The notes beneath the pieces were generated by a model, which was given only the letters and a program-made list of their open reading frames with translations, made no database searches and had not been told where the DNA came from. A DNA stretch of 64,000 nucleotides, from positions 133,683 through 197,682 of IMG/VR virus record IMGVR_UViG_3300007735_000926. One strand, given 5' to 3'. The translations under genes were made by a program, and so were the position numbers. Origin of the DNA: a virus. Its lineage: Duplodnaviria; Heunggongvirae; Uroviricota; Caudoviricetes. The first letter of the stretch is position 1. Each line of letters starts with the position of its first letter. Below, in pieces: positions 7,624 through 42,797 of this stretch.

Positions 7624-7705
7624 TAGCGTTGACAGGACTCGAACCTGCATGCTGTTAAGCGACTGATTTTGAGTCAGTTGTGAATACCAATTCCACCACA
7701 ACGCC
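7624..7705 (-). tRNA. tRNA-Leu (anticodon CAA), type II with long variable arm
   Basis: Hand fold: acceptor GGCGTTG/CAACGCT, D stem GTGG/TCAC, anticodon loop CTCAAAA, variable arm, T arm GCAGG-TTCGAGT-CCTGT. Confidence 0.7.
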
Positions 7706-7715
7706 GTTTTGAGAG

Positions 7716-7789
7716 TTGTCCAGAGGGGACTCGAACCCCTGACCCGACCCTTATAAAGAATCCGCTCTAACCAACTGAGCTACTGGACG
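7716..7789 (-). tRNA. tRNA, anticodon loop TTTATAA (apparent UAU, Ile reading AUA); C1-A72 mismatch
   Basis: Cloverleaf: D arm GCTC-AGTTGGTTA-GAGC, anticodon stem GATTC/GGGTC, T arm AGGGG-TTCGAGT-CCCCT. Confidence 0.6.
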
Positions 7790-7856
7790 TTTGAATTTTA
7801 CTGTAGTTTTTATCCGATCTTTTCTTCCACCAGAGATTTACAATTAGGGGTAAGGG

Positions 7857-7945
7857 TAAGAGCGGTGGGATTCGAACCCACAACCGTTCTGGACGGATTT
7901 GACCGATTATGAGTCGGCTGGTTTAACCATTCACCTCACACTCTT
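7857..7945 (-). tRNA. type II (long variable arm) tRNA with CAU anticodon loop CTCATAA; unusual combination
   Basis: 89 nt; 3-bp D stem with long D loop, anticodon stem GCCGA/TCGGT, variable arm hairpin CCGT-CCAGAA-ACGG, T arm GTGGG-TTCGAAT-CCCAC. Confidence 0.5.
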
Positions 7946-7960
7946 ATGAAAATTAAAGTG

Positions 7961-8045
7961 TGGCCACATCGGGACTCGAACCCGAACGCCCGAAGGGGCA
8001 GCAGATTTTAAATCTGCGGTGTCTACCAAGTTCCACCACATGGCC
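7961..8045 (-). tRNA. tRNA-Leu (anticodon UAA), type II
   Basis: Anticodon stem GCAGA/TCTGC with loop TTTAAAA, variable arm GCCC-CTTC-GGGC, T arm TCGGG-TTCGAGT-CCCGA. Confidence 0.65.
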
Positions 8046-17935: not shown

Positions 17936-19327
17936 TCAATTCTCCTCCTCCATGTTGGTTTCTCCTTTATCTCTATCGGCAGATTCCCCGATGAGAAACT
18001 TTGGGGATTTATATTTCAATGCAATTTTATTAATATCTGTCTCGTTACGAAGAACGACACCTTCATTGACAACACCAGTGGTGCAGAATTCACATGTCTT
18101 ATCCAGATACTTCGCCTTCAAAGATGTTAGGAATTCTTCTCTCCATACTGTTGGTTCAAGATCTGAAGTGTATGGAATATCAAACATATCTTTCGCCAGT
18201 CCCTTGTAATAGACTGGAACATGCTTCAGTCCTTTATCAAGACAGAATGTTTCAATTTCACTCCAAGAGCATTCACGAACACCATTGGGAGTGTTCTCAG
18301 TCATACGATAGACAAAGAAATCACATTCGCCTTGTTTGACACCATAATCGTAATTCTTTTGAACCATCTTGTTGGCAGAAGAATAACCGACAATCTCACC
18401 ATAAATAGTAAAATTCTTAGGGATCTTACCATCCAAACGAGATGCGACCACGCCCCAAACATCATCAGTGAATTTACCATCACGACGGTTCTTTAAGACC
18501 GACCGTGAAGAATACACCAACTTGTGTTCTGTTTCAACAATATTGAATCCAATTTTCTGTCCGATATATCGAAAGATATTGAATGGCTTTCTGCAAAGAA
18601 TATTGCCATACACAGCAGATGTTCCGTGCCACTTTGAAGATACCACGATAGAGTCATCAGGATTAATTTTAAAAATGTTTCTACCCAATTGCTCAGTAGA
18701 TCCGTGGAAATGCCAATGACCGTCTACGATCAAGCTACCAATACCCTTCTTGTTCTTATCGTAGAAATAATTGATGCCATTGTATAGAGGCTTGCGAATA
18801 GGAAGAGGGAACAGGCGAATAGTCTTTTCAACCCATTTAGGAATGCGCTTCTTGGATTCATTTTGAACACCAACCTTACCCGCTGTTGCCACATATTTCT
18901 TCACCAATAGATCATCCTTGACAGTATCAAAAGATTCTCCTGATTTGAAAAAGGATTCAGAAATATTATAATATTCAGAGAGCTTGGATACCTTGAATAG
19001 AAATCCTTGGCTCGGAATCTCACGTAGCTTCACAGCCTTAACTCTCCCATTTTTCGATGAGAAGAAACCCTTAGTCTTACCATCAGCATTCAATTCTGCT
19101 TTATCCAACAGATTTGCCCATGACAAGAACTTCTCCGAGATACAAGATTCCACTGGAAAGTATACCAATTTTTCACCTTTTTGATAACTGCCTTTGGCGA
19201 CGATTACATCACCACCAAAAACAGTAGCCAATTCAAGGCGATCAGCATTTGGATGTGGTTTCAATTCAGGACATTCGATTACCGTAGCTAGGTAATTCGG
19301 ATCACAATTTTTAGAAATACTAATCAT
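17936..19327 (-). CDS. RNA ligase, Rnl2 type, fused to N-terminal tRNA-binding OB-fold (Myf/Trbp111/CsaA-like) domain
   Basis: N-terminal KPHPNADRLELATVFGGDVIVAKG... (tRNA_bind-like); nucleotidyltransferase motif I SKWHGTS (T4 Rnl2 has KIHGTN), motif IV IYGEIVG, motif V EGVVLR, C-terminal KYKSPKF. Confidence 0.55.
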   Translation of the reverse strand: MISISKNCDPNYLATVIECPELKPHPNADRLELATVFGGDVIVAKGSYQKGEKLVYFPVESCISEKFLSWANLLDKAELNADGKTKGFFSSKNGRVKAVKLREIPSQGFLFKVSKLSEYYNISESFFKSGESFDTVKDDLLVKKYVATAGKVGVQNESKKRIPKWVEKTIRLFPLPIRKPLYNGINYFYDKNKKGIGSLIVDGHWHFHGSTEQLGRNIFKINPDDSIVVSSKWHGTSAVYGNILCRKPFNIFRYIGQKIGFNIVETEHKLVYSSRSVLKNRRDGKFTDDVWGVVASRLDGKIPKNFTIYGEIVGYSSANKMVQKNYDYGVKQGECDFFVYRMTENTPNGVRECSWSEIETFCLDKGLKHVPVYYKGLAKDMFDIPYTSDLEPTVWREEFLTSLKAKYLDKTCEFCTTGVVNEGVVLRNETDINKIALKYKSPKFLIGESADRDKGETNMEEEN

Positions 19328-28310: not shown

Positions 28311-29330
28311 CTATTTACTTTTCATTATTTTTTTAATGTTTTCGACTTCAGCCATTTCATTTTTAGCAAAAAGAAAAGCCGAATAATTTTTATAATTGTC
28401 TATAACATGAATTGCGTAATCTTTTCGAGTTGTAAAAATACTCGAAAGATTATTTTTTATTTTATACAATTTTTCTCTAAGAACTTTGTATTCAGAATCT
28501 ATTATCATCATATCTTTCGAAATAATCGATAAAATTTCAAAATCAATATTTTCCAAATTACATTTATTATCGAAATAGAAATCAATTTTTTTATTATATG
28601 TTGATATCTGAGTCAGAAAATAATGAGCGGAACAATACCAACTGCCCTTGATTTTACGCATTTTGTTGGTTTCTGAATAAAGGACAACGCCTTCTTTTCC
28701 AACCCACATTTCAACATCATCGATACATTCCTGAATGGAATTATAATGATATTTTTGTGGGCGAGAAATATCCAGATCCTGCGCCAAATCATCCAAATGA
28801 TATTGAGAGAACATTTCTCCTGTAATCTTATGGATACCACCGATCAACGATAGCTTTGGTTCAGGGAAACCACCAATAACAATAACATTGTTGTTGGTCT
28901 GCCACTCGCAAAGATACGTGATCTCGGGGTCTGCTATCACATAATCAAAGAATTTTTTATATTTCTCCAACAAGAAATCCAATTCGTAACCATTTTGAAG
29001 CTGGCGTAGATCTGTGGTTCCACGAGTTCTAGCTACAAGCTGCCCTTTATACGAATCAAAAATACCCAGAGAACCATCAAGCTTTTCATAAGCATAGAAA
29101 GACTCCTGCATGGGAAATTTATCCAAATCTGGTTGTTCCGACCAATTAAAGAATTTAGGAAATGAACGTGAAACAATGAAATGATCCGACTTGCGGATTA
29201 CCATTGAACGAAACTTCAGAGTTTCTTCCGTCCACTTGACGCCAATTTCTTTGGGAGTGATCAGCCAACAATCGTCGCCAAACACCACACAATCTTTGAA
29301 ATTAAATTCTTCTGAATTTGGAAGTCTCAT
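28311..29330 (-). CDS. rnlA: RNA ligase, T4 RnlA (Rnl1)-like
   Basis: Motif I YEKLDGSLG (T4 Rnl1 KEDGSL), motif IV TYLCEW; size 339 aa. Confidence 0.55.
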   Translation of the reverse strand: MRLPNSEEFNFKDCVVFGDDCWLITPKEIGVKWTEETLKFRSMVIRKSDHFIVSRSFPKFFNWSEQPDLDKFPMQESFYAYEKLDGSLGIFDSYKGQLVARTRGTTDLRQLQNGYELDFLLEKYKKFFDYVIADPEITYLCEWQTNNNVIVIGGFPEPKLSLIGGIHKITGEMFSQYHLDDLAQDLDISRPQKYHYNSIQECIDDVEMWVGKEGVVLYSETNKMRKIKGSWYCSAHYFLTQISTYNKKIDFYFDNKCNLENIDFEILSIISKDMMIIDSEYKVLREKLYKIKNNLSSIFTTRKDYAIHVIDNYKNYSAFLFAKNEMAEVENIKKIMKSK

Positions 29331-33519: not shown

Positions 33520-34260
33520 TTAACGAACGACGGTGACGGTAGTATCAATCACAGAACCGACAGCATTGATCGGATTGAATGGAAGATTACCACCATTGCT
33601 CTTGCTTTCAAATTGAGCAAGAGCAAGTTCAGCCATGCTCTGATTGACAGCATCCAGTTCATCAATCTCTGACAAAGACACGCTATCTTTTGCCACACGA
33701 AGACGACCAGCAGCCTTGTTACGTTCATCCTCAACAAGAGTGGTGATTCGATCAAGACTATCACCGCTGGAACCAAGAGAGGTAATCATACCATTGGCCA
33801 TTTCAGTAAGTTCAGCGGTAGCTTTACGAACCTTCAAATCATTGATACCACGTCCAAGAGCTTCCATCTTATCTTTAGCTGCCTTGACAGAAACATCACG
33901 GGCACGGGTCAAATCTTTGTAAGACTTTTCTGCTTCTTCCAATTGAGCAACAACATCATCATGTTCCTTGTCAACAGTTTGAAGACGAAGAGCAAGTTGT
34001 GCAGCAAGATCACGCTTGCCAGCTTGGAGCAGCACAGGAATCTTGGCATTCAGATCATTTTCATCGACGCTGAGTTTCTTGGCTTGAGCAGCGAGCTTTT
34101 CAACAAGGGCAGCTTGAATAGCAAGACCAGCATTGAAGTTGGCGATTTGCTTACGAAGGTTTTCCTTCTCGTTTTCAAGAAGAGCTTCAGGGTTGTTCTT
34201 TTCAATGCCTCCGATAAAGAGAGCGAAAAATCCACGAATAAGGTTGAGTAGGCGTTTCAT
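33520..34260 (-). CDS. pspA: PspA/IM30/Vipp1-family protein (phage shock protein A-like)
   Basis: N-terminal MKRLLNLIRGFFALFIGGIEKNNPEALLENEKENLRKQI and extended coiled-coil pattern matching PspA family. Confidence 0.6.
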   Translation of the reverse strand: MKRLLNLIRGFFALFIGGIEKNNPEALLENEKENLRKQIANFNAGLAIQAALVEKLAAQAKKLSVDENDLNAKIPVLLQAGKRDLAAQLALRLQTVDKEHDDVVAQLEEAEKSYKDLTRARDVSVKAAKDKMEALGRGINDLKVRKATAELTEMANGMITSLGSSGDSLDRITTLVEDERNKAAGRLRVAKDSVSLSEIDELDAVNQSMAELALAQFESKSNGGNLPFNPINAVGSVIDTTVTVVR

Positions 34261-34283: not shown

Positions 34284-34859
34284 TTATTCTTCGGTTACGA
34301 TGGTGCGTTCAAAACTGGTCACAGCGCCAGTTGAATTAGTTTCCGAAATACGATTGTTATTTGAATCGTATTGATAGGTATACTTGCTACCATCTGGATA
34401 TGTCGCAGAAATCAGATTATTCCTTTCATCGTATTCATAGATAATCTTGTAACCACTTGAATCTCTCTTGGAAATAAGATTGTTACGTTCATCGTATTCA
34501 TAAGTATACTTGTTATCATCTGGAAATGTCTTGGAAATCAGATTATTCCTTTCATCATATTCCAACTTAGGAAATTGTGATTTCATTTCATCAGTATATT
34601 CCTCAAAGGGAACAACACGAAGCACCTTGATCTTGTCGGTAACACTTTTATTATCTTTATCAATAACAGTTCCGAGAATCTCAATTTCCAGAAGAATGAA
34701 ATTTTCAGTTGCACCGTAGTAATTCAGAGTGTCTTCCATCTTTTTACAGAAGTGGAATCCGTGGTTACACATTTCCAATTTGTTAGAGGTATAAGTTTTA
34801 CCAACACGATAAATTTGATTCCGACACTTGAAATTGTAGGTGGCTTTGTAAGCGATCAT
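34284..34859 (-). CDS. YD-repeat protein paralog
   Basis: MIAYKATYNFKCRNQIYRVGKTYTSNKLEMCNHGFHFC... then 5 YD repeats. Confidence 0.6.
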   Translation of the reverse strand: MIAYKATYNFKCRNQIYRVGKTYTSNKLEMCNHGFHFCKKMEDTLNYYGATENFILLEIEILGTVIDKDNKSVTDKIKVLRVVPFEEYTDEMKSQFPKLEYDERNNLISKTFPDDNKYTYEYDERNNLISKRDSSGYKIIYEYDERNNLISATYPDGSKYTYQYDSNNNRISETNSTGAVTSFERTIVTEE

Positions 34860-35070: not shown

Positions 35071-35550
35071 TTAGTGTATAAATGAGCGTAGTCGAAAATC
35101 AATATCTTTCAACCATTCTTCTTTGGTATAAAAGAGAGGGATATTATAACGCTCACACACAATACGAACATTACCCTGTCGCCAAAATCCATCAGGACAG
35201 CAAACAATTAACCTACCCGAATTAGCATACAATCCAAGTTCAAGAAGGCTAATAGGACTCTTTGTATTAGGGTCGAAATACATAACAATGTAGTCCGACT
35301 GATCCAACATATCAAGCTCCCAATTGACCTGTTCATCAAACTGCGGGCTATTATGGTCCCATGAACTATCCCAATCATATCGACGAGGATTGAAAAACAT
35401 CATATTGTTAGGATACCTTGCCATGAATTCATCTTGCCAATTTTCAGCCGCACCCATCTCAATACTTCCAGCAAGGAAAATAGAGGCATCTGGAAGTCGT
35501 TCATCATCAATTGTAAGCCTAATGGGAGGTTGAATTTGGAATGATTTCAT
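35071..35550 (-). CDS. nucleoside 2-deoxyribosyltransferase-like fold protein (tentative)
   Basis: SIFLAGSIEMG... flavodoxin-like start similar to NDT/Rcl family. Confidence 0.3.
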   Translation of the reverse strand: MKSFQIQPPIRLTIDDERLPDASIFLAGSIEMGAAENWQDEFMARYPNNMMFFNPRRYDWDSSWDHNSPQFDEQVNWELDMLDQSDYIVMYFDPNTKSPISLLELGLYANSGRLIVCCPDGFWRQGNVRIVCERYNIPLFYTKEEWLKDIDFRLRSFIH

Positions 35551-35562
35551 ACAATTATCAAT

Positions 35563-35916
35563 TTAGATTGGGAAATGTCCAAATCCAGAGCAAGACGTTT
35601 CAGGGAAAAGTGAATCAATCACGTTTGCTTGTTCCTTTGAAAGTTCAATCACTTCAAACAAGCTAAGAAACTCAGACATGGATCGATATTCATTTTGCTC
35701 GTTTGAGCCAAAGTAAACAGAAAAACAACAATCTTCATCATCTTCGATTTCTCTTTCTTCTTTGAATTCTTTGATAGCATTTTCCCACTCTTCAATATCT
35801 TCGAAAATCTTAAACCCGCTGACATCCATTTCATCAGCCCAATTTTCGTCAAATTTTACCAGTAGCATATTTTTTATTTTATTTTTTGTTGTAAAGGGAA
35901 AAGACCCGGATTTCAC
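35563..35916 (-). CDS. acidic hypothetical protein
   Basis: 117 aa. Confidence 0.4.
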   Translation of the reverse strand: MKSGSFPFTTKNKIKNMLLVKFDENWADEMDVSGFKIFEDIEEWENAIKEFKEEREIEDDEDCCFSVYFGSNEQNEYRSMSEFLSLFEVIELSKEQANVIDSLFPETSCSGFGHFPI

Positions 35917-36042
35917 GTTCGTTCGTTAAACATACAACCGTCCACGGTTTCAGGAATCGAACCTGTATGTTTAGTCTCTATCGGATCGTTAGACACCTAC
36001 GTATGTGTCCCTATTCTGCAATGTTATATACCATTCAGAAAA

Positions 36043-36903
36043 TTAGAAGTTCTGAGCGACCTTAGCACGAATGCCAGCGAGCGTCTGTTCCTTGGTAATC
36101 ACACCATCCTTGAACACCTGCTCAAAGGCACAATTCTTAACGTCGTCCCAAGTGGCTTGATCCTTCATAACAAAGTTACCATCCTTTTCATAGACAGCAA
36201 TCAGTCCCTTGGCACTCTTCTTGAGTCCGTCATCAGTCTTCGGGTCTTTGAAGATTTCAACACCCTGAGTCTTACCATCAACCGTCACTTCGCCATAAGT
36301 GGACTTGACAGCGAATCCGTGAGTGTCACGGGTAACGATGGCGTCCATCGTGATAGCACCCTGATAAGTGAAGCTTCCGATACCATACACAAGGTTGGTC
36401 GAAGCAAACCCCTTGGCAGCGAGACGTTCACAGATAGCGGTAGCACGATCAATGGTGATACTGTCTCCATAGATGGCTCCAATATGACTATCAAGCTGAT
36501 GGTAGCCTGTGCTAGTAGCGGTGCCGCCAAAGATTTCCCAGAGACACTGAATCATGCCCTTAACTTCAAGCTCGGTAAGTTCTTTGCCCTTCAGTTCGCC
36601 AGTTTTTTCATTGGGATCAAGTTCGTAAATTTTACCTTGATGGACGATAATTTCATCATTGGTATAACCAGTCACAATCTTAACTGGATCACCCGAGTCA
36701 GGACGAATGACAACCTTACCATCACGGGCCATGATCTTGTCCTTGAGAATAGCAGCGATACCACCATCAGGATTCACAACGTTCCAGAAGTCCCACGTAT
36801 CCGAAACGATACTCGCGATACCATCAGGGTAGGTTTCAGTAATGAGGCGTTCGAAAAGAAGGAGTTCGCCAAGGCTTTGCTTTTGAGTTGCGTTTAGTTT
36901 CAT
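36043..36903 (-). CDS. nadV: nicotinamide phosphoribosyltransferase NadV/NAMPT, C-terminal half of split gene
   Basis: VSDTWDFW, VIRPDSGDP, IYGDSI, YGIGSF, IFKDPKTDDGLKKSAKG align with NAMPT residues ~300-490; has own ATG and motif copy at 36940-36960. Confidence 0.65.
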   Translation of the reverse strand: MKLNATQKQSLGELLLFERLITETYPDGIASIVSDTWDFWNVVNPDGGIAAILKDKIMARDGKVVIRPDSGDPVKIVTGYTNDEIIVHQGKIYELDPNEKTGELKGKELTELEVKGMIQCLWEIFGGTATSTGYHQLDSHIGAIYGDSITIDRATAICERLAAKGFASTNLVYGIGSFTYQGAITMDAIVTRDTHGFAVKSTYGEVTVDGKTQGVEIFKDPKTDDGLKKSAKGLIAVYEKDGNFVMKDQATWDDVKNCAFEQVFKDGVITKEQTLAGIRAKVAQNF

Positions 36904-36989
36904 AGTGTTTGTAGTATGGGGCAGTGTTTTATATTTGAATTTATTATAACGTAGTTTTTATTGATTAAATTACAGCTTTAAGTGTAAAT

Positions 36990-37700
36990 ATGTATATGAC
37001 TGAATGTTCAGAACGACCACAAGATACCAAATCATGCACCAAATGTCAAGAAGAAAAACCATTGAACGAGTTTCCTAAGAGTTCTCGATTTAAATCTGGT
37101 TTTAATTCCCAATGCAAATATTGTTTAAATACCGCATCTAAAAAATGGAGGGATGAGAATTCCGAAGACTTCAAAAACCGACGCAAGGAGCATTATTGGA
37201 AAAATGTTGATAAAATGCGAGAAGAAAAACGTCAATATGTTGAAAGATCAAAGCCTCAAAAAATTGCTTATGATGCTGAGTATCGAAAGGCCAACAAAGA
37301 TAAGATAGCAGCTTACAAAAAGAATTGGGAATCTAAAAAGAAAGACGATCCAATTTTTAAAATCAAAAGAAATTTAAGAAGACGAGTTCACCATGCTTTG
37401 ATGGGAAGAACCAAATCGGATAATACGTTTAATCTTATTGGCTGTTCAGCAGAAGAATTTAAAGCTCACATTGAAAGTCTTTGGTTGGAAGGTATGTCTT
37501 GGGATAACTATGGACCCTCTGGATGGCACGTTGACCATATCAAAGAATGCCATACGTTTGATTTATCTGATCCAAAACAACAGAAAGAATGTTTCCATTA
37601 TTCCAACCAAAGACCTCTGTGGGCTAAAGATAATCTTAGCCGTTCACGGCCATCACATAATCGTAATATTCGTAAGACTCATCAATCTCGTCAGGGATAG
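36990..37700 (+). CDS. HNH homing endonuclease inserted between the two nadV halves
   Basis: Plus-strand ORF with N-terminal zinc-finger Cys cluster and GWHVDHIKECH HNH motif; Lys-rich. Confidence 0.6.
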   Translation: MYMTECSERPQDTKSCTKCQEEKPLNEFPKSSRFKSGFNSQCKYCLNTASKKWRDENSEDFKNRRKEHYWKNVDKMREEKRQYVERSKPQKIAYDAEYRKANKDKIAAYKKNWESKKKDDPIFKIKRNLRRRVHHALMGRTKSDNTFNLIGCSAEEFKAHIESLWLEGMSWDNYGPSGWHVDHIKECHTFDLSDPKQQKECFHYSNQRPLWAKDNLSRSRPSHNRNIRKTHQSRQG

Positions 37701-38466
37701 ATTCAATCATAACGGCAGTTCCAAGGCACATGCAACTGTGTTCGGACGCTGCAACAGACACACCAACCATTTCCTTGTCACTATCAGCATTGTAATACTC
37801 CTCAAGGAAGTCGATGGCAGGAAGCGTATCAGTTCCGACAAAGCTAAGAAGGTGAGCAGCACCACTCATGGTAGCAGCTTCAAGACCCATCATACCACGG
37901 AAAGAGAAATCGTGTCCTTGGAATTGGACGAAATCAATCATTTCAGGATTGGTCTTCTTAGCCCACTCATTAAGAATCCTACGATAAATAAGAGCGGTCG
38001 TTGCACTGGTGCTACAAGCCCAAGTCGAGCAAGACAGAATGGTTTCAATGGCATTGGTAAGCCAGAAGAAACGAGCATCAGTGTTGAACACGACGAACAT
38101 TGGGACACGAAGATCAACGTTAGAACCTTCAGGCAGCGCCCAAATTTCAAGCGGAAGATAACCAAGAGCGTGAAGATCACGAATATGCTGGTCGCCAATG
38201 TTGTTGACGCCAAGGTAATTCAGAAGACGACGACCATACTTCTTGGTAACTTCATCCAAAGGACGAGAGAAGAAAGTGCGTTCCCATTCATCAAGCAGAT
38301 ACTTCTTCATGAAGTATTGCAGACCAAAACTGATCACCTTATTGATTCCCTTGACGCGAGTGCCGCGTGCAGTGAGATTCGAAAAGACCAGTTCGCTATT
38401 GCTAGGATACTGGCGGCGATGGTCAACTTTGTAACCGTCTACTAAGAGTGGAGCGAGTGTATTCAT
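37636..38466 (-). CDS. nadV: nicotinamide phosphoribosyltransferase NadV/NAMPT, N-terminal half of split gene
   Basis: VDGYKVDHRRQY, FQGHDFSFRGMMGLEAA, SFVGTDT, AASEHS align with NAMPT residues ~1-285. Confidence 0.65.
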   Translation of the reverse strand: MNTLAPLLVDGYKVDHRRQYPSNSELVFSNLTARGTRVKGINKVISFGLQYFMKKYLLDEWERTFFSRPLDEVTKKYGRRLLNYLGVNNIGDQHIRDLHALGYLPLEIWALPEGSNVDLRVPMFVVFNTDARFFWLTNAIETILSCSTWACSTSATTALIYRRILNEWAKKTNPEMIDFVQFQGHDFSFRGMMGLEAATMSGAAHLLSFVGTDTLPAIDFLEEYYNADSDKEMVGVSVAASEHSCMCLGTAVMIESIPDEIDESYEYYDYVMAVNG

Positions 38467-38496
38467 AATGTTTGTTGTATTTATTGAGGTTGTTGA

Positions 38497-38531
38497 GATT
38501 ATATTGTAGTTTTTATTGAAAAAATATCAGT
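38497..38531. repeat. 35-bp direct repeat copy A (includes gene-upstream motif) flanking LAGLIDADG gene
   Basis: GATTATATTGTAGTTTTTATTGAAAAAATATCAGT, repeated at 39531-39565 with one mismatch. Confidence 0.6.
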
Positions 38532-38549
38532 CTGATACTAAATAAGATC

Positions 38550-39458
38550 ATGACCAAGCATATCAAAAAAGAGTATTCCGATGTATTGAATGAGCTTTAT
38601 CCAACTTCAATCTCAATCGATGAGATAGCCGAGAGAATGAAACTGAGTAAACATACGGTTGAAGTATATGCTAGGAAGTTGGGTTTGTCAAGACCAAAAC
38701 CTGAGCCATGGAATTCATTATCAGAAAAAGATGAGAGATTGATATTGGATATGTATGAGTATGGTGATTTTGATGAATTGTCTCAGTTGGTTGGAAGAAG
38801 TAAACACGCTATTTCAGAATGGGCTAGGAAGAGAGGTATTAAACGTCAAATCAATATCAATCGAAATGGTGATATATCTATACTTCTTAATGGTTCTTTG
38901 CAATCGTTCTATTGGTTAGGTTTATTGGCATCTGATGGATATGTCAGCAAAGATGGGCATCTCATGTTCTCACAAGGGGAAAAAGATAAAGATATCGTAG
39001 AATCATTTGCATTGTATGTCAATTCTGCTGTTTATCAATTTGAAGTTGAATCTGGTTACAATACTCAACCTAGAACACTTTATAGAGTCAATGTAAAAGA
39101 TATTAACGCTGGAAAGGAAATTAGGAATTTATGGGGGTTGGATGATGAAGATCAAAAAACATACTCAAGTATATCGTCGGAATTTTTAAAAACAAAAGAA
39201 CAAGCAATGGCATTCTTGATTGGATTCTTTGATGGGGATGGATATCTCAGACCAAATTTTGCTGGTAAAATTGAAGTTCATTCTAATTGGTTGCAATTCC
39301 TAAATGAAATCTGTAAATTAGTCGGATTGGATTACGAAGGTAAAATCAATAATCGTGGATATGCCCGAATCACAATCAAAAAATCATTTATGCTTCAATT
39401 GAAAGCTTTTATCGAATCTAACAATTTGGTCCACAATCAAAGAAAATGGAACTTATGA
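38550..39458 (+). CDS. LAGLIDADG homing endonuclease with N-terminal HTH
   Basis: Two LAGLIDADG motifs: LLASDGYV and FFDGDGYL. Confidence 0.6.
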   Translation: MTKHIKKEYSDVLNELYPTSISIDEIAERMKLSKHTVEVYARKLGLSRPKPEPWNSLSEKDERLILDMYEYGDFDELSQLVGRSKHAISEWARKRGIKRQININRNGDISILLNGSLQSFYWLGLLASDGYVSKDGHLMFSQGEKDKDIVESFALYVNSAVYQFEVESGYNTQPRTLYRVNVKDINAGKEIRNLWGLDDEDQKTYSSISSEFLKTKEQAMAFLIGFFDGDGYLRPNFAGKIEVHSNWLQFLNEICKLVGLDYEGKINNRGYARITIKKSFMLQLKAFIESNNLVHNQRKWNL

Positions 39459-39530
39459 ACGTCCACGAGTAGAGGAGCTAATGTATTCATATTTTTATTG
39501 TATTTTTGTTGTATTTACAGGAGTTGCAGT

Positions 39531-39565
39531 GATTATATCGTAGTTTTTATTGAAAAAATATCAGT
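39531..39565. repeat. 35-bp direct repeat copy B (orphan motif copy)
   Basis: GATTATATCGTAGTTTTTATTGAAAAAATATCAGT. Confidence 0.6.
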
Positions 39566-39567
39566 GT

Positions 39568-40485
39568 TTAATTGGTTGCGTAGTCGTTGTTAAGAACTTT
39601 GACGATAGCTTTGTCTTTACCTTTGAGTTCGAATTCCCACACACAATCACTATTCAGTTTAACAACGTCGGGCATGTGAGTGGCGTATTCAGCATGACTG
39701 CGGGGACTTGCTACAACGCCTTCACTCCAATGCATAACAGGTGTATAAGAACGCCATGTGCTTTTGAAAAGATCAAAGTGACAAACTGGAGAAGGATTAA
39801 CAGCATCGTGTAGATTGTCAAACACCAAAGGAAGATAACTACCAAAGTTGTTGTAAAGATTTTCAGCATTCCAAAAACCTTTGTCTTCGTTCTCAAGAAC
39901 CAAACGATTGCGAACACCAATATCGCAACGATTGAAAGCATTTCGGAAACGAATCAAATAATCCATCATGCTATCTTTAGCGGGATCAATCGAAAGATTA
40001 AGATGCAAACACATTGGTGATGAATAATTTCGAGCGCAGCCAAACATATCAAGAACATACGATTGATGATTCAGTTCTTTGATAGTCTTGGTGACAGTAT
40101 CAGGATTGAGTGATGGAAGAACATTGAATTGATCAGGATGTGACGAAATACTAACACCCAGCTTAACAGCAAGATCACCTGCATATTGCAAACGTGATTT
40201 GATTTCCTCAAAATCTGGCAGATCAAAATAAGAAAGATTGAGAGTGCTGTCAGTAATAAGGGGAAACAGATTGCTACTGATGCGATAATGCTTGATACCC
40301 ACAACAGCACAATGATGAATGATCACACCACACAAACGACTGTTGTGTAGAATCTTCTTAGAAAGATCAGCGATGGCAATATCGCGCTTCAACGAATTGA
40401 AACGAGAACGAGTCATCGTTTGAAACGCATTTGTTTTATTTTTTTCCTTGAGGATTTCGCTGATACAGACTAGGCCGATATTCAT
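39568..40485 (-). CDS. uvdE: UV DNA damage endonuclease UvdE
   Basis: RISSNLFPL, SSHPDQFNVL, RLVLENEDK, FDNLHD, HWSEGVVASPRSHAEYA align with Bacillus UvdE. Confidence 0.6.
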   Translation of the reverse strand: MNIGLVCISEILKEKNKTNAFQTMTRSRFNSLKRDIAIADLSKKILHNSRLCGVIIHHCAVVGIKHYRISSNLFPLITDSTLNLSYFDLPDFEEIKSRLQYAGDLAVKLGVSISSHPDQFNVLPSLNPDTVTKTIKELNHQSYVLDMFGCARNYSSPMCLHLNLSIDPAKDSMMDYLIRFRNAFNRCDIGVRNRLVLENEDKGFWNAENLYNNFGSYLPLVFDNLHDAVNPSPVCHFDLFKSTWRSYTPVMHWSEGVVASPRSHAEYATHMPDVVKLNSDCVWEFELKGKDKAIVKVLNNDYATN

Positions 40486-40788: not shown

Positions 40789-41043
40789 TTAATACCATGA
40801 AATAATCCAAACATTAAATATATTATGCTTTAAGCAGAAGCCATTTTGTTTCAGTTTATCGATAACAAAAGTGGTGAAAACTGTGTCACATTCAACAGAA
40901 TACCGTCCACTCATTGCAGCATTCTTGATAGCAACCTCAAGAGCTAAAAGCATATTTTCATCAGCTTGTCCTTTTAGTTGTTGTGCAACTGGATTGGTTA
41001 TCTCATTAGCTTCTTTTGCAGAAATCATATTAGTTTGTTCCAT
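40789..41043 (-). CDS. hypothetical protein
   Basis: 84 aa. Confidence 0.35.
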   Translation of the reverse strand: MEQTNMISAKEANEITNPVAQQLKGQADENMLLALEVAIKNAAMSGRYSVECDTVFTTFVIDKLKQNGFCLKHNIFNVWIISWY

Positions 41044-41825
41044 TTTCTTTCCATTACTGGAATATTCATATCTAGTGTTAGATTTTTAAACTTTCGAAAA
41101 TTTTCATTTTTGTAAATCATAAGCTTAGAATACCCTCTTGATGTCATTGAAATTATCGATTCTATCTTGAAGTGTTTCTCTAAAGCTATTTTTATAGATT
41201 CTAACACTTCCATCCAAGATGAATGTAATTCAAATTTCATGGCCACTACTTTAGATTTTTGCATACAAAAACAACCATCACCATCAAACAGTCCAAAGAA
41301 AAATGATACAAACTTATCCGAATCATTTAATATTTTTAATAGGTTTGGAGGATTTATGGTTTTTGTATGACCGACTTTATACAAATTTCTCAACTGTTCA
41401 CATGTATTAACATCTGATATGGAAATCGTGACCGATTCAGTATTGTTTGCGTAAGTGGTATTCTGAATGTTGTGTTTTATTGGCTGCTCGACTTCTAAAA
41501 AGTTTCTAAATTTTATTAAGTGTCCTTCGTCTTTGGGAGAAACTGTAATTTTTATGTTATTGCGTTTCCCTATATGACCATCGGCTATTATGAAACCATG
41601 CCAATAATAGGATTCAAGACTGTCATTTAATAATTTAGATGCTTTATATTTTCGTTTGTCTATCAAACTTTTGATTTTGAATCGTCTAGCAGCCTCTTTT
41701 AGTGTAGATCGTTTAATTCCTAGTTTTTTCGCTAATTGATTTTTATCACCTAACGGATATTCATCTTTTAAAAGTTGGATTTTTTCTGGTGTCCATTGGA
41801 TTTGAGGTTTTATAAGTTGGCTCAT
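41025..41825 (-). CDS. LAGLIDADG homing endonuclease with N-terminal HTH
   Basis: FIIADGHIG and LFDGDGCF motifs; similar architecture to 38550-39458 product; AT-rich, no standard motif. Confidence 0.55.
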   Translation of the reverse strand: MSQLIKPQIQWTPEKIQLLKDEYPLGDKNQLAKKLGIKRSTLKEAARRFKIKSLIDKRKYKASKLLNDSLESYYWHGFIIADGHIGKRNNIKITVSPKDEGHLIKFRNFLEVEQPIKHNIQNTTYANNTESVTISISDVNTCEQLRNLYKVGHTKTINPPNLLKILNDSDKFVSFFFGLFDGDGCFCMQKSKVVAMKFELHSSWMEVLESIKIALEKHFKIESIISMTSRGYSKLMIYKNENFRKFKNLTLDMNIPVMERKWNKLI

Positions 41826-41855: not shown

Positions 41856-42797
41856 TTACACCGAAAACTTAAAACATGTGAAATTTCCACAATCTACCGA
41901 TTCGTCCCAATTATGTTTTGTGTTGACAGTATAAACATGGTCAAAATGCTGACACACATTCTGAACACCTTCAACCGTATCTGAATGCGCTGTAAACAGA
42001 TAAATTGGTCCCGGATTTTTTTCTTTCAATTTTTTAGCCAAACCTATAAAAGTCCCCCCTTTACAATTTACGTCATCAAAGATGATCGAAGGATTACCGC
42101 CAAGATCGTCAGCTTGAACAAAGAATCCCTTGAGCGACCCATCCTTAACGTCACGAATCTTCTCACAACGAATCATTTCAAATTCGATGAGGGGGAATTC
42201 ATTGGCCAAGTAAGTAGCGATCTTACCAACACGCTTGCCAGCGCCAGCGTCAGGACACACGATGTTGATCTTCTTGATAGAAGAATCAGATTTAATCAAA
42301 TCTGCAACGATCAGCTTTGCATAATCATGATCGTCAACGACAACAACATTGTTGAGAAGAGCAGGAGTCACTTCACTATGAGGAGTAAAGATGAACACCT
42401 TGGAGAAGTTGCAGTCATTGATAAGCTTGGCAAAGACAGCGACCGTAAGCGGTTCACCAGCATTGCAAACACGGTCTTGACGAGCAGCGGGGAAGTATGG
42501 AAGCACAAGCTGGATATTGGTAAAACCAGCCCGACGAGCAGCATCAACAGCAAGGATGATATCCATGAAATCTCCTGCACTGTTCACACGATGCGTAATG
42601 ATCAAATCACCGGGATTATCCAGTGCGATGGTGCTGGTAATTTGGAAGTGAGATTCACCACCCGGAAAAGTCAGCTTTTTGAAAGTGAGAAAGAACAAAT
42701 TGGTTTTATCAACAAAAGGACTGAACGCTTCATCAAGGTTGAGGACGAACGTTTCGTCATTTTTCTGAATCCAGTGAGTGTGTAAGTGCTGTTTCAT
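41856..42797 (-). CDS. prs: ribose-phosphate pyrophosphokinase (PRPP synthetase)
   Basis: GESHFQITSTI...DLIITHRV...ILAVDAARRAGFTNIQLVLPYFPAARQDR pattern of Prs. Confidence 0.55.
   Translation of the reverse strand: MKQHLHTHWIQKNDETFVLNLDEAFSPFVDKTNLFFLTFKKLTFPGGESHFQITSTIALDNPGDLIITHRVNSAGDFMDIILAVDAARRAGFTNIQLVLPYFPAARQDRVCNAGEPLTVAVFAKLINDCNFSKVFIFTPHSEVTPALLNNVVVVDDHDYAKLIVADLIKSDSSIKKINIVCPDAGAGKRVGKIATYLANEFPLIEFEMIRCEKIRDVKDGSLKGFFVQADDLGGNPSIIFDDVNCKGGTFIGLAKKLKEKNPGPIYLFTAHSDTVEGVQNVCQHFDHVYTVNTKHNWDESVDCGNFTCFKFSV

Follow-up and report, generated by a model that had tools for sequence, protein, structure and literature searches.

Studies of enzyme genes that are split by a freestanding homing endonuclease cover few cases so far, namely nrdA of Aeromonas phage Aeh1, gene 39/60 of phage T4 and gene 43 of Aeromonas phage 25. 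The arrangement in Aeh1 is nrdA-a/mobE/nrdA-b, where a freestanding HNH-family gene sits in a critical region of a nucleotide-metabolism gene (Friedrich et al. 2007, as cited in PMC2988022). The enzyme is made there as two separately translated polypeptides with C- and N-terminal tails created by the insertion, and these insertion-derived tails are essential for assembly into the active enzyme (Crona et al. 2011, PMC3045599). According to PMC2988022, gene 39/mobA/gene 60 of T4 and gene 43/seg43(25) of phage 25 are also enzyme genes in two coding regions with a freestanding endonuclease, encoding a topoisomerase and a DNA polymerase respectively, and translational bypassing is found in T4 gene 60. 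Here we analyse a stretch of 64,000 nucleotides (the window) from a virus of the Caudoviricetes, positions 133,683 to 197,682 of the IMG/VR record IMGVR_UViG_3300007735_000926, in which a gene of the Nampt/NadV family is interrupted by an HNH-like endonuclease gene lying on the opposite strand. On the whole, our analysis makes it quite probable that this is a split gene made by a freestanding endonuclease, a new instance of the known genes-in-pieces phenomenon and not a new mechanism.

The locus resembles Aeh1 nrdA in its freestanding nuclease gene within an enzyme gene, in its two coding regions and in the extra tails at the broken ends. Unlike in Aeh1, the host gene is of the Nampt/Namat family, the nuclease is of a different family (Pfam HNH models do not match it) and lies on the opposite strand, where it overlaps the tail of the first half, and the second half has a promoter-like motif of its own. 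Moreover, Aeh1 is a single phage, whereas dozens of diverged alleles in both orientations are found here, and a function of the tails is here argued by analogy. The gene also differs from those of T4 and phage 25, and no bypassing element like that of T4 gene 60 is seen in it. The literature searched, which leaves out most subscription journals, contains no account of a split nadV, Nampt or Namat, so that this absence is not proof. PHROGs has an N-only family (phrog_16547) and a C-only family (phrog_15800), and gene callers have therefore met such halves before.

The interrupted gene is read on the minus strand as two open reading frames (ORFs), at 37636..38466 (276 residues, the N-half) and at 36043..36903 (286 residues, the C-half), and the nuclease gene between them is at 36990..37700 on the plus strand (236 residues). 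A sequence-only reading of the window had taken the two ORFs as the N- and C-terminal parts of NAMPT, and profile and structure alignments bear this out, showing that they are consecutive, contiguous parts of one Nampt-family enzyme. With Pfam, where the family is represented by PF18127 and PF04095, NAMPT_N and NAPRTase profile positions 1-56 are found in the N-half, and NAPRTase positions 72-223 in the C-half. On the NCBIfam model NF006629 (465 positions), the N-half covers 9-236 and the C-half 236-462, with 248.8 and 246.5 bits; each half alone is under the 405-bit cut-off of the model, and the full-length family match is reached by both together. Against the solved structure 9w5x, a Namat of phage SpbetaL1, the N-half aligns over its residues 5-248 with 8-250 of the chain, and the C-half, starting with its residue 13, with the chain from 255 onward. 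Only about 4 residues of this reference fall between the halves, and nothing in it corresponds to the final 27 residues of the N-half or to roughly the first 11 of the C-half. The full set of family motifs, EHS, GHDFSFRG, VSDTWD and RPDSGD, is kept across both halves, and every invariant column of a 28-sequence alignment is retained in the split gene. The single-chain AlphaFold model of the concatenated halves has a predicted template modelling (TM) score of 0.86, and agrees with solved Namat 9w5x at TM 0.91-0.92 and with solved Namat and Nampt structures at TM 0.87-0.92 (target-normalised).

In the N-half, the native part (codons 1-249, 37720..38466, minus strand), aligned to residues 8-250 of 9w5x, carries the ARGTR loop with Arg37, GHDFSFRG and the catalytic EHS at residues 242-244, and homology stops at residue 249 (..AASEHSCMCLG). 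The length of about 285 residues given in the sequence-only reading does not hold. After the native part follows an acidic tail of 27 extra codons (TAVMIESIPDEIDESYEYYDYVMAVNG) plus a stop (37636..37719, minus strand), absent from uninterrupted genes and overlapping the 3' end of the nuclease gene by 65 nucleotides in antisense. The nuclease gene itself runs on the strand opposite to nearly all other genes of the window. Between the divergent starts of the nuclease and the C-half there is an AT-rich spacer of 86 nucleotides (36904..36989, G+C content 0.24) with a promoter-like AATAAAAACTACgTTATAAT on the minus strand (36951-36962, followed by a -10-like hexamer). The C-half then opens with a basic head (MKLNATQKQSL, 36871..36903, minus strand), made up of a new start and about 11 additional codons and likewise absent from uninterrupted genes. 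Its native part (36043..36870, minus strand) contains VSDTWD, RPDSGD and GSFTYQ...VTRD; VSDTWD is at residues 33-38. As regards composition, the gene halves have a G+C content of 0.465-0.469, against 0.382 for the window and 0.30-0.36 for the endonuclease genes.

In close relatives this gene is whole. An IMG/VR scan with the N-half as query gave 16 loci (L001 onward), and in ten phage contigs (L001, L003-L008, L010-L012) the gene is a single ORF of 511-546 residues. The uninterrupted genes read ...EHSVMC[ML]GGMEDEVETF[KR]RLI... across the break point of the window, and the empty, unsplit site of the L001 type is ..GCGGCTACGGAACACAGCGTTATGTCTTTGGGTGGTATGAAGGATGAAGTT... The counterparts of N-half residue 249 and C-half residue 13 are 4 codons apart in the unsplit relatives, and the native part of the N-half runs directly into the C-half in L001 and L003-L008. 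L002 has the same arrangement as the window and is collinear with it over 3.5 kilobases (kb) at 78% nucleotide identity. In addition, the loop after EHS varies in length among the intact genes, and at 6700-7080 of L009 the same loop holds an in-frame insertion of about 100 residues, of unknown nature, in an otherwise intact ORF of 620 residues. The variable length and the L009 insertion therefore mark this loop, which adjoins a highly conserved coding stretch, as permissive. The L009 insertion was considered as a scar of tail-head fusion and this was rejected, since its sequence resembles neither tail nor head. Bacillus phage Tsamsa was also considered, as a split gene, on account of a two-piece tblastn match, and was rejected because it has a single 572-residue ORF with an in-frame insertion. 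Split-type halves, on the other side, are abundant: in a collection of 5.8 billion proteins, the best 120 matches examined for each half include 36 split-type N-halves and 59 split-type C-halves, all of them open frames.

The nuclease is matched by the PHROG profiles of endonuclease VII (9e-16) and HNH endonuclease, and its residues W179-H180-x-D182-H183, N206 and N215 are invariant across 50 homologues. In its AlphaFold model (predicted local distance difference test, pLDDT, of 87), a zinc ribbon at the N-terminus and a beta-beta-alpha unit at the C-terminus are seen along with long helices, and the nuclease is likely an HNH-like (His-Me finger) enzyme. At E<=1e-10 it has 911 homologues, not one of which carries a Pfam domain or a name. 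Homologues were located in 80 viral loci, and all 8 with at least 45% identity are in or adjoining a Nampt-family gene, the other 72 being elsewhere. The gene is split by the nuclease in antisense in L017-L020 and on the sense strand in L021, L023 and L024, and the nuclease lies beside an intact gene in L022. Database homologues that were sampled are linked to a Nampt-family gene in 7/7 cases, five with the gene split by an antisense nuclease (P0001, P0007, P0009, P0029, P0047) and two with the nuclease just beyond the 3' end of an intact gene (P0046, P0088). The nuclease is thus a member of a widespread clade tied to this gene and is not a one-off. Among the cultured phages of INPHARED, tblastn finds no nuclease homologue above 33% identity, so that this clade is missing from them, and a megablast search of the region against the same 50,697 phage records gives no match. 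Two variants of the arrangement may be added here. In one split allele, L105, an extra ORF of 239 residues with a signal-peptide-like N-terminus lies between the nuclease gene and the C-half (2273-2992). The sense-strand nuclease of L021 (4998-5636), L023 and L024, all from IMG/VR sample 3300045988, has two in-frame TAG codons at positions where the homologues have Gln, and 0/31 long ORFs of these loci end in TAG; it is possible that TAG is recoded to Gln, or else that the endonuclease gene is decaying, and no suppressor tRNA is found within the three loci.

Evidence for movement comes from the flanks of the insertion. Outside the junction, the gene of the window is 88-89% identical to that of the unsplit L001, and L002 shows 91-94% (5' segment) and 86% (3' segment) to the unsplit L003/L004. 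Over the 130 alignment columns that surround the insertion, however, the two split alleles are nearest to one another (78%), the window having 60% to L001. Informative sites stand at 120:35 in favour of L001 upstream, at 5:19 at the junction and at 75:17 downstream. By these comparisons, the cassette is present in at least two backbones, both of which have close kin without the split. Such mosaic flanks are the co-conversion footprint expected of homing and would fit a mobile endonuclease. Further evidence comes from L102, a contig of 108 kb, in which the whole N-half/nuclease/C-half module is 95.7% identical to that of the window, with a neighbouring PRPS-like gene of just 67%; a module so similar amid flanks of about 67%, together with the higher G+C content of the gene halves, suggests that the whole module is swapped between phages.

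The alternative that survives best, though we regard it as unlikely, is that the opposite-strand gene is no longer or never was mobile, being a domesticated nuclease or regulator, and that the split is inherited vertically. Its argument lies in selection. We computed the ratio of nonsynonymous to synonymous substitution rates (dN/dS) by the Nei-Gojobori method between the window and L002, which shares the split, at dS of 0.87-1.25, and obtained ratios of 0.12 (N-half core), 0.20 (C-half), 0.15 (HNH-like nuclease) and 0.09 (a neighbouring LAGLIDADG gene), by which both halves and the nuclease are under purifying selection. Purifying selection of this strength on the nuclease is not always shown by persistent selfish elements; its dS of 0.87, similar to that of the host gene, fits co-inheritance, and the lack of a Pfam HNH match would also suit a domesticated protein. 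On the other hand, comparison of the host genes does not unite the split alleles as a monophyletic group, their flanks are mosaic, and the nearly identical module of L102 lies beside a much more diverged neighbour gene. Furthermore, homologues that occur inside the gene in either orientation, or beside an intact copy, follow the pattern of a freestanding homing endonuclease.

The same measure of selection bears on whether the gene is dead, that is, inactivated by the insertion with the ORFs left as decaying remnants, a case that the sequence-only reading had named as one that would go against it. An insertion a few codons past the catalytic histidine is expected to be damaging. This explanation is nevertheless very unlikely, as the halves have dN/dS of 0.12 and 0.20 at dS near 1, both ORFs are open in dozens of diverged split alleles, and the invariant columns of the 28-sequence alignment are kept, as are the promoter-like motif, the start codon and the extension peptides.

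These extension peptides deserve closer attention. Among split N-halves, the tails of the main class read [IL]PDEIDESYEYYxYV and those of a second class ..EE.FNE.TGEWEV.., with 3-11 Asp/Glu (mostly 5-8) and 0-4 Lys/Arg; among split C-halves, the heads of the main class read MKL[NT]xxQK[QL]RLGELL and those of the second class abound in Arg and Lys. In the loci at hand, the class of the tail is paired with that of the head. The tail of the window lies antisense to the last 21 codons of the nuclease, and for the 39 nucleotides that code the tail motif, six loci show 58 pairwise differences that are silent in the tail and change the nuclease, against 6 of the reverse kind. The nuclease homologues beside intact genes lack this C-terminal extension. 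From this asymmetry and this absence it follows that the tail is under selection as belonging to the host enzyme. The model of the concatenated halves shows the head prolonging a native helix and gives the tail a pLDDT of 61-82, which is suggestive only. Because the tails of Aeh1 NrdA are essential (PMC3045599), an assembly role can be proposed here as well, and the acidic tail and the basic head probably help the assembly of the split enzyme.

Each half also appears to be provided with its own signal for expression. The motif AATAAAAACTAC (at most 1 mismatch) followed by a TAnAAT hexamer is found at 17 places in the window, where 0.74 would be expected; every copy is on the minus strand, and many minus-strand ORFs are preceded by one. 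The motif stands 51 nucleotides upstream of the ATG of the N-half and 59 nucleotides upstream of that of the C-half, the latter copy lying inside the insert. This agrees with the first reading, in which each half had its own ATG and upstream motif. The C-half of L002 is preceded by L002's own variant of the motif, AATAAAACGTTAAACTA, which argues that independent expression of the C-half may be maintained. Generic sigma-70 and terminator consensus scans gave results at shuffle level (11 vs 9.7 expected and 3 vs 2.3, respectively) and were not used. Sites of the form AATAAAAACTAC-N-(A/T)TA(C/T)AAT on the minus strand occur for example at 709, 5904, 7225, 8696, 9222, 9446 and 10764. An ATG stands exactly 26 nucleotides from the motif start (about 7 nucleotides past the hexamer) in 7/17 copies, with no Shine-Dalgarno sequence seen, a spacing that suggests leaderless or near-leaderless mRNAs.

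With these peptides and motifs in hand, the two alternatives that would restore a single protein can be judged. Phage genes for nucleotide-metabolism enzymes often host group I introns with HNH genes, and intron sites often lie beside catalytic motifs as this insertion does. The sequence-only reading kept an intron, which could not be excluded by eye, as its alternative, and named 36904-37635 as the place to look for its core. In that case the insert would be a self-splicing group I or II intron with an antisense endonuclease gene, and splicing would restore a single mRNA and protein. Our results make this highly improbable. Scans with Rfam 15 show no intron family in 35800-38700 at E<=10, and no intron in L002, L009, L018, L020, L021 and L023 at E<=0.1, the scans giving only tRNAs and chance snoRNA-level matches. 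In the insert of about 850 nucleotides, 711 are the nuclease ORF and just 86 are non-coding, and in the same-strand variants L021/L023 the N-half, nuclease and C-half overlap by a few codons, therefore leaving no room for an intron core. In addition, the host frame encodes conserved and selected peptides directly beyond the two homology breaks, a promoter-like motif of its own precedes the C-half, and the cassette occurs at one and the same site in either orientation, an arrangement incompatible with a strand-specific ribozyme. The remaining alternative, of negligible probability, is a split intein joining the halves by trans-splicing as in the 'fractured genes' of Dassa et al. 2009 (PMC2677866), where a freestanding endonuclease gene likewise lies between gene halves; the extensions have 27 and about 11 residues against roughly 100 and 35 needed, the tail begins with Thr-Ala (TAVM...) and not with Cys/Ser/Ala-1, the head does not end in His-Asn followed by Cys/Ser/Thr, and Pfam finds no Hint or intein domain.

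The freestanding split gene in the style of T4, as first proposed from the sequence, is therefore upheld by the unsplit kin, the missing intron match, the motifs of the two halves and the selection on them. Several results nevertheless weigh against it and should be set beside this evidence. The mosaic flanks could also result if recombination with an intact allele had removed the cassette precisely. Neither the nuclease nor any of the 50 aligned homologues is matched by a Pfam HNH model, and sequence searches of the PDB with the single sequence and with the 50-sequence profile return no solved relative, only matches of chance or zinc-finger level. Fold searches with the nuclease give few and weak matches: Foldseek lists the beta-beta-alpha-Me enzyme Hpy99I (probability 0.75-0.89, E of about 1.3) and the HNH subunit of Septu (E of about 1). 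The original HNH call is thus backed in part, by the PHROG profiles and the invariant WH-DH...N...N pattern, and lacks a Pfam or a firm fold match. As for the tail, its whole 27 codons have a dN/dS of 0.82 (window vs L002), a measure confounded by the overlapping frames, and the constraint is therefore local, concentrated in the PDEIDES..YY core. The promoter role of the motif, and with it any transcription from there, is argued from recurrence, and the function of the split enzyme from conservation.

On the reading as a freestanding split gene, a cassette of about 36871-37719 would have been inserted in a surface loop just past the catalytic EHS of a phage Nampt-family gene, probably the Namat of the NARP1 NAD+-reconstitution pathway. 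The cassette would contain the antisense HNH-like nuclease gene, a phage-type promoter, a new start codon and short extensions for both broken ends. The gene would be expressed as two polypeptides of 276 and 286 residues, each from its own promoter, and the halves may reassemble non-covalently into the normal dimeric enzyme. In a mixed infection, the nuclease would cut uninterrupted alleles, and repair would copy the cassette together with short gene flanks into the recipient. The activity and target of the nuclease, the coming together of the halves into a working enzyme and the part played by tail and head are all predicted here from sequence.

It is also of interest which enzyme is split. 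The best solved match of the joined halves is 9w5x (E of 1e-140, 44-45% identity), followed by Haemophilus NadV (3.5e-105, 36%) and human NAMPT (27%), and the phages SPbetaL1 and FADO, in which NARP1 is validated, are among the top cultured-phage matches. The initial label at family level, Nampt/NadV, is thus correct, and the enzyme is closest to Namat and not to canonical NadV. The N-half residue Arg37 aligns with the clamp-loop Arg40 of 9w5x in a column that is nearly invariant in the alignment. The signature of the selectivity-clamp helix of Namat is given as GS-X-phi-X-phi-X-phi-TRD with X aromatic (PMC12774641). The window has GSFTYQ-GAITMDAI-VTRD, in which positions 3 (F) and 5 (Y) fit and Gly stands at position 7, with an insertion of seven residues (GSFTYQGAITMDAIVTRD) after it, a variant common to most close relatives. 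A PRPS-like gene at 41856..42797 (minus strand; Pfam Pribosyltran_N) is a candidate for the Adps (ADP-ribose pyrophosphorylase) partner. Its protein is below every curated NCBIfam PRPS cut-off, with the last 38 or so profile positions unmatched. The PRPS-like gene is immediately upstream of the N-half in L102/L103, where the adjacency in L102 is the NARP1 operon order, and the gene order was also viewed in L097 and L106-L108. Compared with NARP1 (Adps + Namat; bioRxiv 10.1101/2024.02.11.579819; PMC12774641; PMC13586617), the locus shares the best solved match to Namat, the upstream PRPS-like gene, the clamp-loop Arg and the first two aromatic residues of the signature, and unlike the Namat of NARP1 it has Gly plus seven residues at the third aromatic position and a split gene. 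A look-up of terms in these three papers gave no mention of a split gene or an endonuclease. Taken together, we lean towards Namat rather than classical NadV.

The same gene has been invaded at a second site. A LAGLIDADG endonuclease gene of 302 residues (38550..39458, plus strand) is inserted after nucleotide 31 (codon 11) on the opposite strand. Its ORF matches Pfam LAGLIDADG_3 (4.8e-08, 33.6 bits against a cut-off of 22.5) and a PHROG endonuclease profile (2e-22), and two LAGLIDADG motifs, LLASDGY and FFDGDGY, are visible in it. The ORF is bracketed by a direct repeat of about 110 nucleotides that includes the promoter motif, the 5' untranslated region (UTR) and the first 31 nucleotides of the gene. 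The upstream copy is a dead stub, with the original first 10 codons (MNTLAPLLVD), 7 junk codons and a stop (39437..39490, minus strand). The original promoter copy (39491..39565, minus strand; motif 39540-39551) is stranded upstream of this stub and points into the LAGLIDADG gene in antisense. The downstream, cassette-borne copy provides the putative promoter and 5' UTR now driving the working N-half (38467..38549, minus strand; motif 38506-38517). As the cassette (38467-39458) makes up for what it displaces with a promoter, a 5' UTR and codons 1-10 of its own, the gene remains complete, with the stub as a leftover. L002 has a stub and a stub promoter of native type, like those of L004, and its cassette copy has the promoter of the window type. 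The target region of the insertion reads CTACTCGTGGACGGTTA in native form. The native 5' sequence CTCGTGGAC is changed at codons 7-9 in both cassette copies, to TTAGTAGAC in the window and CAAATCGAC in L002, which is what immunisation of the target site would look like. L102, in spite of its 95.7% identical module, and L103 are without the LAGLIDADG cassette. Insertions of freestanding endonuclease genes with terminal duplication are known in organelle genes. The LAGLIDADG cassette is like these in carrying a spare copy of the displaced part of the host gene, and unlike them in that the duplicated part is the 5' end with the promoter, that the genome is that of a phage and that the endonuclease gene runs on the other strand.

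Besides these two cassettes, a second LAGLIDADG-domain ORF is found at 41025-41825 (minus strand; Pfam 4e-13), 27% identical to the first and directly downstream of the PRPS-like gene, and a UvdE UV endonuclease is encoded at 39568-40485 (minus strand). By these positions, two endonuclease genes and UvdE stand between the two genes of the putative NARP1 operon, which is also split by a third endonuclease gene. Nearby on the minus strand lie genes for a nucleoside 2-deoxyribosyltransferase-like protein (35071-35550), an RHS-repeat/DUF7666 protein (34284-34859) and a PspA/IM30-like protein (33520-34260). Elsewhere in the window there are four tRNA genes (Leu, Ile, Met, Leu) at 7624-8045 (minus strand) and two RNA ligase genes, at 17936-19327 and 28311-29330.

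As to what the split means, we tentatively put forward, with somewhat less than even confidence, that the cassette is a portable 'repair kit' of phage promoter, start codon and charge-complementary tail and head, which would allow a low-cost invasion of a counter-defence enzyme and make the NARP1 operon a hot spot of selfish nucleases. If true, this would explain how the split form came to be spread, in either orientation, across very different phages (host genes 45-50% identical). A second solution, a spare promoter and 5' end, would be that of the neighbouring LAGLIDADG cassette, and selfish nucleases would be carried along on a gene too costly for phages to lose. The series of diverged alleles, unsplit kin, both orientations and the nuclease beside an intact gene is unusually complete, and is useful for asking how a protein survives a cut beside its catalytic histidine. 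The conserved tail and head peptides are candidate natural tags for the assembly of split proteins. Since each half is below the curated cut-off, annotation pipelines will under-count this counter-defence gene, which belongs to a family, Nampt/Namat, by which phages rebuild NAD+ against the NAD+-depleting immunity of bacteria.

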